A DNA stretch of 64,000 nucleotides, from the NCBI GenBank assembly GCA_023131835.1, contig JAGLZA010000099.1:787-64786 (forward strand). The letters are read 5' to 3'. A model generated the notes under the pieces. That model ran no database searches, was not told the DNA's origin, and worked only from the letters and a program-made list of their open reading frames with translations. This DNA is from a candidate division WOR-3 bacterium. GTDB taxonomy: Bacteria; Hydrothermota; UBA3072. The translations under genes and the position numbers were made by a program. Shown piece by piece: positions 45,839 through 45,882 of the stretch; within the stretch, counting starts at the first letter, position 1, and each line of letters starts with the position of its first letter.

Positions 45839-45882
45839 GAGCCCATTGGCATAAACATAATTGTATTTGAGATTTTTATGCC
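45839..45882. repeat. 44-bp fragment identical to rhs core sequence at 47315-47358
   Basis: GAGCCCATTGGCATAAACATAATTGTATTTGAGATTTTTATGCC is present in both places. In the rhs gene it encodes GHKNLKYNYVYANGL. Confidence 0.85.

Follow-up and report, generated by a model that had tools for sequence, protein, structure and literature searches.

A probable scar of cassette displacement downstream of an rhs toxin gene in a candidate division WOR-3 bacterium

The rhs gene and its toxin tip

The window analysed here is a stretch of 64,000 nt from a candidate division WOR-3 bacterium (assembly GCA_023131835.1, contig JAGLZA010000099.1). Its rhs module is encoded on the minus strand and comprises a full-length rhs/YD-repeat toxin gene (46628-51034), two downstream genes for membrane proteins, mem1 (45894-46565) and mem2 (44941-45756), and, in the gap that separates the latter two, a 45-bp piece of rhs core sequence (45838-45882) which is the subject of this report. 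The Rhs protein is 1468 aa long when read from a TTG start, and its N-terminus, an upstream TTG-initiated extension (50900-51034), reads MRKTLVIILLSLFISNAKG and is signal-peptide-like.

Pfam RHS_repeat (PF05593) matches Rhs in four stretches (3e-18), DUF6531 is matched at 1.2e-8 and TIGR01643 is matched as well, while the Rhs-associated core domain (TIGR03696, Rhs_assc_core) is recognised at aa 1277-1375 with 73.4 bits against a cutoff of 32.5. The DPYGM motif lies at aa 1371 and is followed by a variable tip, which diverges between the window and its closest intact counterpart, described below. Judged from these sequence features, namely the repeats, the core domain with its DPxG(L/M) motif and the variable tip, the main gene belongs with the Rhs/YD-repeat polymorphic toxins; its exact full-length product is not on record in sequence databases. 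The presence of DUF6531, combined with the lack of a PAAR or VgrG signal, suggests T6SS-independent export.

Toxin tip 1 (46628-46909, minus strand) consists of the 93 aa after DPYGM and carries two motifs of the form WCGxxxSGG and CCMHHDFC, the first of which reads WCGPSYSGG. Comparison of five related tips shows that H56, D57, C52 and C63 are invariant; tip 1 contains the putative catalytic His-Asp pair in a CCxxHDxC context. A profile of the five tips yielded 27 weak matches in PDB (E = 0.098-10), 23 of which are secreted phospholipases A2 (PLA2) aligned on D..CC..HD.CY, and the top Foldseek match of an AF2 model, itself of low confidence (pLDDT 64.5), was a snake-venom PLA2 at E = 3.2. The tip has no Pfam match at E <= 1. 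On these grounds tip 1 is tentatively classified as PLA2-like. Zhang et al. 2012 (PMC3482391) list RHS repeats among the carriers of Tox-PLA2 domains, and tip 1 shares with Tox-PLA2 and secreted PLA2 the CCxxHDxC(Y) motif and an upstream glycine-rich loop, xCGxxxxGG. It differs from the listed Tox-PLA2 signature, CxxHxxxYxN, which is group XIV-like, in having CCxxHD, in its best E of 0.098 and in the Pfam result, and a further difference is that the candidate immunity proteins in the window are polytopic membrane proteins.

Two candidate immunity genes

The product of mem1, a polytopic membrane protein of 223 aa annotated as hypothetical protein KAW18_07555 of candidate division WOR-3, is the candidate immunity protein for tip 1, and mem2, coding for a polytopic membrane protein of 271 aa, is a retained orphan immunity candidate. 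Hydropathy profiles give about five to six transmembrane segments for mem1 and about six for mem2, and neither protein matches Pfam or NCBIfam. Since the two have no mutual similarity, we ruled out that they are paralogues. Only two relatives of mem2 occur among 1.84 billion representative proteins, and its only close homologue among 5.8 billion proteins is P0002, encoded on a contig of 1574 bp (L006); to this same protein mem1 shows a weak N-terminal similarity (E = 0.03). Such a narrow distribution is typical of immunity proteins. It is from position that we infer the immunity roles of mem1 and mem2, and these two ORFan polytopic membrane proteins are probably linked to PLA2-like tips as their immunity proteins.

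A 45-bp repeat of the rhs core

A 44-bp stretch of the rhs core had been flagged by a first-pass annotation as duplicated between mem1 and mem2. The duplication is genuine and its identity extends 1 bp further: positions 45838-45882 and 47314-47358 form an exact direct repeat of 45 bp on the same strand, hereafter R, with a start-to-start spacing of 1476 bp. The original 44-mer occurs exactly twice in the window (45839-45882 and 47315-47358), a third copy was not found there even with three mismatches allowed, and no chance match appeared in 100 dinucleotide-preserving shuffles. Gapless extension of R adds only three further matches, located past two mismatches on one side. A codon-degenerate pattern of R, searched for in 185,579 species-representative genomes, was not found at any site, a result at variance with the possibility, considered at the outset, that the stretch is a widespread repeat unrelated to rhs. 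R belongs to the ordinary, conserved coding sequence for the Rhs shell and does not have the character of an integron-like att site; an integrase was not found among the neighbours scanned (type I R-M, HEPN, SIR2-like, AbiJ, Schlafen and deacetylase genes).

The core copy of R (47314-47358, minus strand) encodes Rhs aa 1226-1240 (GHKNLKYNYVYANGL; in the rhs frame, (G)HKNLKYNYVYANGL), some 50 aa ahead of the Rhs-associated core domain and 145 residues ahead of the DPYGM motif. The stub copy (45838-45882, minus strand) appears to be the sole core remnant of a displaced cassette. It sits, as first described, in the 137-bp gap (45757-45893) that extends from the mem1 stop to the mem2 ATG, and is closely followed by a stop: in the Rhs frame (frame 2) a single Pro codon is interposed between R and TGA, to give ...GWHKNLKYNYVYANGLP and the stop. 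Perfect identity between the two copies is unremarkable, given that the core end is 94-100% conserved within the species.

The gap as a whole is ordered as follows. An 11-nt junction (45883-45893, minus strand) connects the mem1 stop to the left edge of the stub; after the 45 nt of R comes a junction at which, by comparison with L006, about 0.64 kb is missing; next are 22 codons reading LEESPPGWMKDLIWVDWPSWAY and a stop (45769-45837, minus strand), whose frame is -1 with respect to that in which R is read in the core; and a 12-nt spacer (45757-45768, minus strand) precedes mem2. The frame of the 22 codons is that of a 59-aa ORF (45769-45948), with the stop codon at 45769-45771. We also considered a continuation of core homology beyond R, in which ATCACCACCAGGATGGA would correspond, after a gap of 22 nt, to the rhs segment ATTACCACCACGATGGA containing YHHDG. 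The flanks of this alignment were marginal (34/500 and 19/500 shuffles), and the YHHDG-like 17-mer patch, which in a wider test was no better than shuffles, was dropped in favour of the reading given below, in which the 22 codons are the tail of a toxin tip.

An intact counterpart of the presumed older cassette

We found a single intact comparator, the contig L006, which itself starts inside R. It contains, in this order, the end of an rhs core, a variant PLA2-like tip, 18 nt of spacer, and the gene for P0002, which is 72% identical to mem2 over 218 aa, with 93% DNA identity over the 3′ 509 nt. P0002 follows directly upon an intact rhs tip, and a mem2-type gene therefore occupies the position of an immunity gene; the synteny makes mem2 a candidate for the cognate immunity gene of such a module. 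The proposal that the distal membrane-protein gene of the window was once part of an orphan module is thereby strengthened, as the 18-nt spacing to an intact tip is accompanied by a core end 94% identical to that of the window.

The identity between the two sequences is mosaic. Nucleotides 1-573 of L006, comprising the core end and the first half of the tip, are 94% identical to window positions 47341-46769, and nucleotides 1065-1574 are 93% identical to 45435-44927, while the intervening segment (574-1064), covering the C-terminal half of the tip and the N-terminal third of the membrane protein, cannot be aligned. In terms of the proteins, conservation in DNA at 93-94% covers the tip from its start to CCMxHDF, approximately its first 47 residues, and approximately the last 165 residues of the mem2-type protein, and the C-terminal half of the L006 tip differs from that in the window and ends in ...CEGAKPFWLRPGTPLIWLDIPSF and a stop. 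This distribution suggests that the variable unit spans the C-terminal half of the tip and the first third of the membrane protein, with conserved sequence on either side, and the swapped unit seems to begin inside the toxin domain rather than at DPxG(L/M). A search for further relatives of this second tip type, with the L006 tip alone as query, returned no candidates.

The 22-codon peptide LEESPPGWMKDLIWVDWPSWAY can be aligned over its whole length to the 22 C-terminal residues of the L006 tip (EGAKPFWLRPGTPLIWLDIPSF), with a BLOSUM62 score of 43 as compared with a shuffle mean of 24.6 (sd 4.3), a score reached by 0.0016 (0.16%) of 5000 composition-preserving shuffles. The match terminates at the C-terminus of the L006 tip, just ahead of the immunity gene. 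The likeness is confined to the protein level and to these 22 residues: as DNA, the 84 nt behind R aligned to L006 no better than shuffles did. The peptide is not similar to tip 1 of the window. We regard it as resembling the C-terminus of the second tip type, of which it is probably a remnant. An earlier suggestion that a deletion had removed an orphan tip can thus be given a sharper form: about 0.64 kb is missing, and a 22-codon tail resembling the C-terminus of the L006 tip is left behind.

Orphan rhs-CT arrays in relatives and in known systems

To place the stub in context, we used the last 256 aa of Rhs as a query and retrieved 61 proteins, many of which are C-terminal Rhs fragments of 230-360 aa on long contigs. 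One relative (L011) has an rhs gene of 1518 aa and, behind it, two orphan C-terminal ORFs that each precede a small gene; three others (L007, L008 and L010) have two or three consecutive orphans; and in L012 two membrane ORFs come after the end of the main rhs gene, then an orphan bearing a PLA2-like tip, and finally a membrane ORF of 109 aa. No matches to the Rhs C-terminus were obtained from species-representative genomes, nor were any obtained from JGI metagenomes scanned with the Rhs C-terminus and with a mem2 alignment. Alignment of related rhs loci, the check originally proposed for this locus, has brought out both the intact arrangement of L006 and the orphan arrays of more distant loci.

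Between the orphans of these relatives and the main gene, or among the orphans themselves, 150-480 nt of core are shared with 78-86% identity. When mapped onto the window Rhs, their core stubs begin at aa 1132-1218, just upstream of R (aa 1226-1240); the left edge of the window stub, at aa ~1225, is close to these edges and therefore falls where the cassette boundaries of the family lie. The stub is far shorter than every orphan stub seen in the relatives. Like an orphan module, it is located behind a full-length rhs gene, shares the orientation of that gene and comprises a core fragment (45 bp at 100%); a complete C-terminal toxin domain is lacking, with only 22 out-of-frame codons in its place, and we therefore view the stub as a relic of an orphan module rather than a module.

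Some smaller features of the same contigs were recorded by the way. In L012, a small membrane ORF (3517-3846) situated after an orphan PLA2-like tip contains 'ANWPS', to be compared by eye with 'AEWPS' in mem1, a likeness which hints that proteins conferring immunity to PLA2-like tips have a determinant in common. In L007, four to five tandem 23-nt repeats (CAGRNNAATTCCCCAGTTRGGGT) are present at 13473-13585, directly after the third, truncated orphan core stub and at the end of the JGI contig.

Full-length rhs genes with orphan rhs-CT/rhsI modules behind them are known from Salmonella Typhimurium LT2, Dickeya dadantii 3937 and Yersinia pseudotuberculosis (PMC3967940, PMC3150448), and the C-terminal displacement model is credited to Jackson et al. 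2009 in these two papers. According to Poole et al., such modules keep rhs coding sequence, sometimes with stop codons (PMC3150448), and Koskiniemi et al. described recombination between main and orphan genes in Salmonella via 522 bp at 95% identity (PMC3967940). The window resembles the enterobacterial modules in the location of the stub downstream of the main rhs gene, in its orientation, in the presence of a core fragment and of a cassette-specific immunity gene, and in forming a recombinable repeat. It differs from the LT2 module, with its 522 bp of core, and from the relatives in this family, with 150-480 bp, in that the stub measures 45 bp; it differs from the enterobacterial modules also in that the toxin is cut to 22 out-of-frame codons, so that recombination cannot give a new functional toxin. 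The host, moreover, is a member of WOR-3, and its Rhs combines a signal-peptide-like N-terminus with no evident T6SS context, unlike the enterobacterial systems.

Strings of immunity genes after toxin genes were interpreted by Zhang et al. 2012 as remnants of earlier tip replacements (PMC3482391). As in those strings, two unrelated genes of immunity type stand behind one toxin gene in the window, the apparently newer one ahead of the older. The window, unlike those strings, also keeps what is probably the scar of the replaced toxin, i.e. the core stub and the tail, between its immunity genes, so that the history could be read directly.

Origin of the stub

Taken together, these findings make it probable that the stub is a recombination scar, the last core piece of an older tip/immunity cassette which was displaced by tip 1 and mem1. 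Our high confidence in displacement draws on the exact repeat, the occurrence of the junction in independent samples (see below), the synteny and mosaic identity of L006, the likeness of the tail, and the orphan arrays of the relatives. An incoming tip 1/mem1 cassette would have recombined with the resident rhs gene through the conserved core, and the old 3′ end would have been pushed downstream. In a two-step route, this displacement would have been followed by a later internal deletion of about 0.64 kb, removing the core end and most of the tip; in a one-step route, a homologous crossover in the core would have been coupled to an illegitimate right-hand junction, the donor DNA having ended 45 nt into the orphan stub that followed. 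The right edge of the stub would represent the deletion in the former case and the illegitimate junction in the latter. Throughout, mem2 would have stayed intact, and it presumably still protects against neighbours with tip-2-type toxins.

Minimal efficient processing segments for recombination usually measure a few tens of base pairs. For transformation of B. subtilis, a processing segment of >40 bp is cited in PMC4824099. Recombination between the two copies of R would therefore be mechanistically possible, and its product would lose 1476 bp, including tip 1 and mem1, and leave a tipless Rhs ending in ...ANGLP and a stop. Such a product should be counter-selected, and we therefore infer that the stub is a relic rather than a switch. 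The view taken in the first-pass annotation, that stubs of this kind are the substrate for tip swapping, needs qualification for the window, where the stub has lost its tip and is followed by an out-of-frame tail.

The scar is an ordinary by-product of Rhs tip swapping, a known phenomenon, and current understanding of Rhs systems is unchanged by it. What the locus offers is a clean, readable history of tip displacement in an uncultivated phylum, with a core stub, a toxin tail and a retained orphan immunity gene within or beside 137 bp; it also indicates that a mechanism described in enterobacteria operates in candidate division WOR-3 too.

The junction in other assemblies and alternative explanations

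The proteins of the locus recur in several public assemblies; they are annotated as hypothetical proteins of a candidate division WOR-3 MAG, with a source contig of 69,194 bp. The mem1-R-mem2 junction does not depend on a single assembly, because it is also carried by a contig from an independent sample (L013; ENA ERZ23498673, sample SAMN18200506), which matches window positions 46015-44923 at 99.9%. This contig runs unbroken through the end of mem1, R, the tail and mem2; it includes some 120 nt of unique mem1-side sequence before the stub and the complete mem2 gene beyond it. Two further contigs, from two sequencing runs (L001 and L002), start inside or at R, run into the tail and mem2 at 100%, and stop inside a structured element (44585-44910) that flanks the module. 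The segment between the two copies of R is represented as a separate contig in three assemblies: L003 (ENA ERZ23499063 scaffold_73272), L004 (GCA_023129935.1 JAGMBB010000332.1, placed in a MAG) and L005. This segment starts in frame in the middle of rhs and ends in R, and both copies of the repeat are therefore required by the data.

L003 is 1531 bp long, and its first and last 55 nt are identical, which makes it a circular path holding a junction of mem1, R and core end (B-R-B) that is absent from the window arrangement. It could be argued from this contig, and from the stand-alone L004 and L005, that the copies of R bound an active 1476-bp unit of tip 1 and mem1, subject to excision as a circle or to tandem amplification, with resulting heterogeneity in toxin/immunity dosage; indeed, in Salmonella an amplification of the rhs region precedes recombination between main and orphan genes (PMC3967940). 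We consider an active unit unlikely. A direct repeat loops any de Bruijn graph with k <= 45, and assemblers that drop lower-coverage flanks can isolate the cycle and carry it to larger k; separate R-to-R contigs are thus the expected behaviour of a direct repeat in such a graph, and the circular contig is probably a graph artefact. In addition, the unit is without a recombinase or replication gene, and the arrangement seen in both L013 and the window is the plain one with a single copy. Should the L003 junction nevertheless be genuine, a minimal scar of an old tip replacement would keep the copy number of a toxin/immunity cassette dynamic in WOR-3 populations. In either case R calls for caution in assembly, as it splits short-read assemblies and yields a spurious-looking 'circular' contig of 1.5 kb that can be mistaken for a mobile element.

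A second alternative, that the stub has been co-opted as a functional signal for mem2, such as a promoter or a translational-coupling element, is in our view very unlikely. Two sigma-70-like matches are present on the gene strand in or near the stub (45884-45857 and 45789-45760), and the stub is 100% conserved in three samples. Promoter-like matches in the gap region, however, are no commoner than in shuffles (15 found versus 12.5 +/- 3.9 expected), a scan of the gap for promoters and terminators gave nothing above chance, the samples are near-identical throughout, which makes the conservation uninformative, and the mem2 homologue in L006 has an 18-nt spacer without a stub. Least probable of all is an assembly artefact or a chance duplication without a tie to cassette history, for short-read contigs do break at R, but shuffles gave no match, L013 crosses the stub, the R-to-R segment requires both copies, and both L006 and the tail relic associate mem2 with a tip. 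A scar of displacement remains by far our preferred explanation of the stub.

Flanking elements and neighbourhood

The element in which L001 and L002 stop (44585-44910) lies outside the scar and is the left of two copies that flank the rhs module; the right copy (51106-51363) is in inverted orientation relative to it. Three copies of 260-330 nt occur in the window (6814-7115, 44585-44910 and 51106-51363), with terminal inverted repeats of 17-19 nt (GGAGTTTCATCATTTTT ... AAAAATGATGAAACTCC), and the two inverted copies, which are 86-92% alike, bracket the whole rhs-mem1-stub-mem2 module. A 16-mer of the element has five matches in the window as compared with 0.28 expected, and the region 51100-51370 folds at -116.6 kcal/mol (z = -8.3). 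Neither the window nor the flanking elements matched an Rfam family. The element may be MITE-like, or else a structured RNA of no Rfam family, and its presence might identify the module as a unit that was inserted or can be inverted.

Next to the rhs module lies a defence island (33466-44434) in which a type I R-M operon (HsdR, HsdS, HsdM) is interleaved with HEPN, SIR2-like, AbiJ-NTD4 and Schlafen/AlbA_2 genes, and the orphan rhs tips of L007 likewise adjoin TIR, HEPN-AbiU2, GmrSD and methylase genes. Within the island, a Schlafen/AlbA_2-Fic-like gene (41138-42658) contains three to four tandem 12-nt units (41376-41423) that encode (VTEQ)n.
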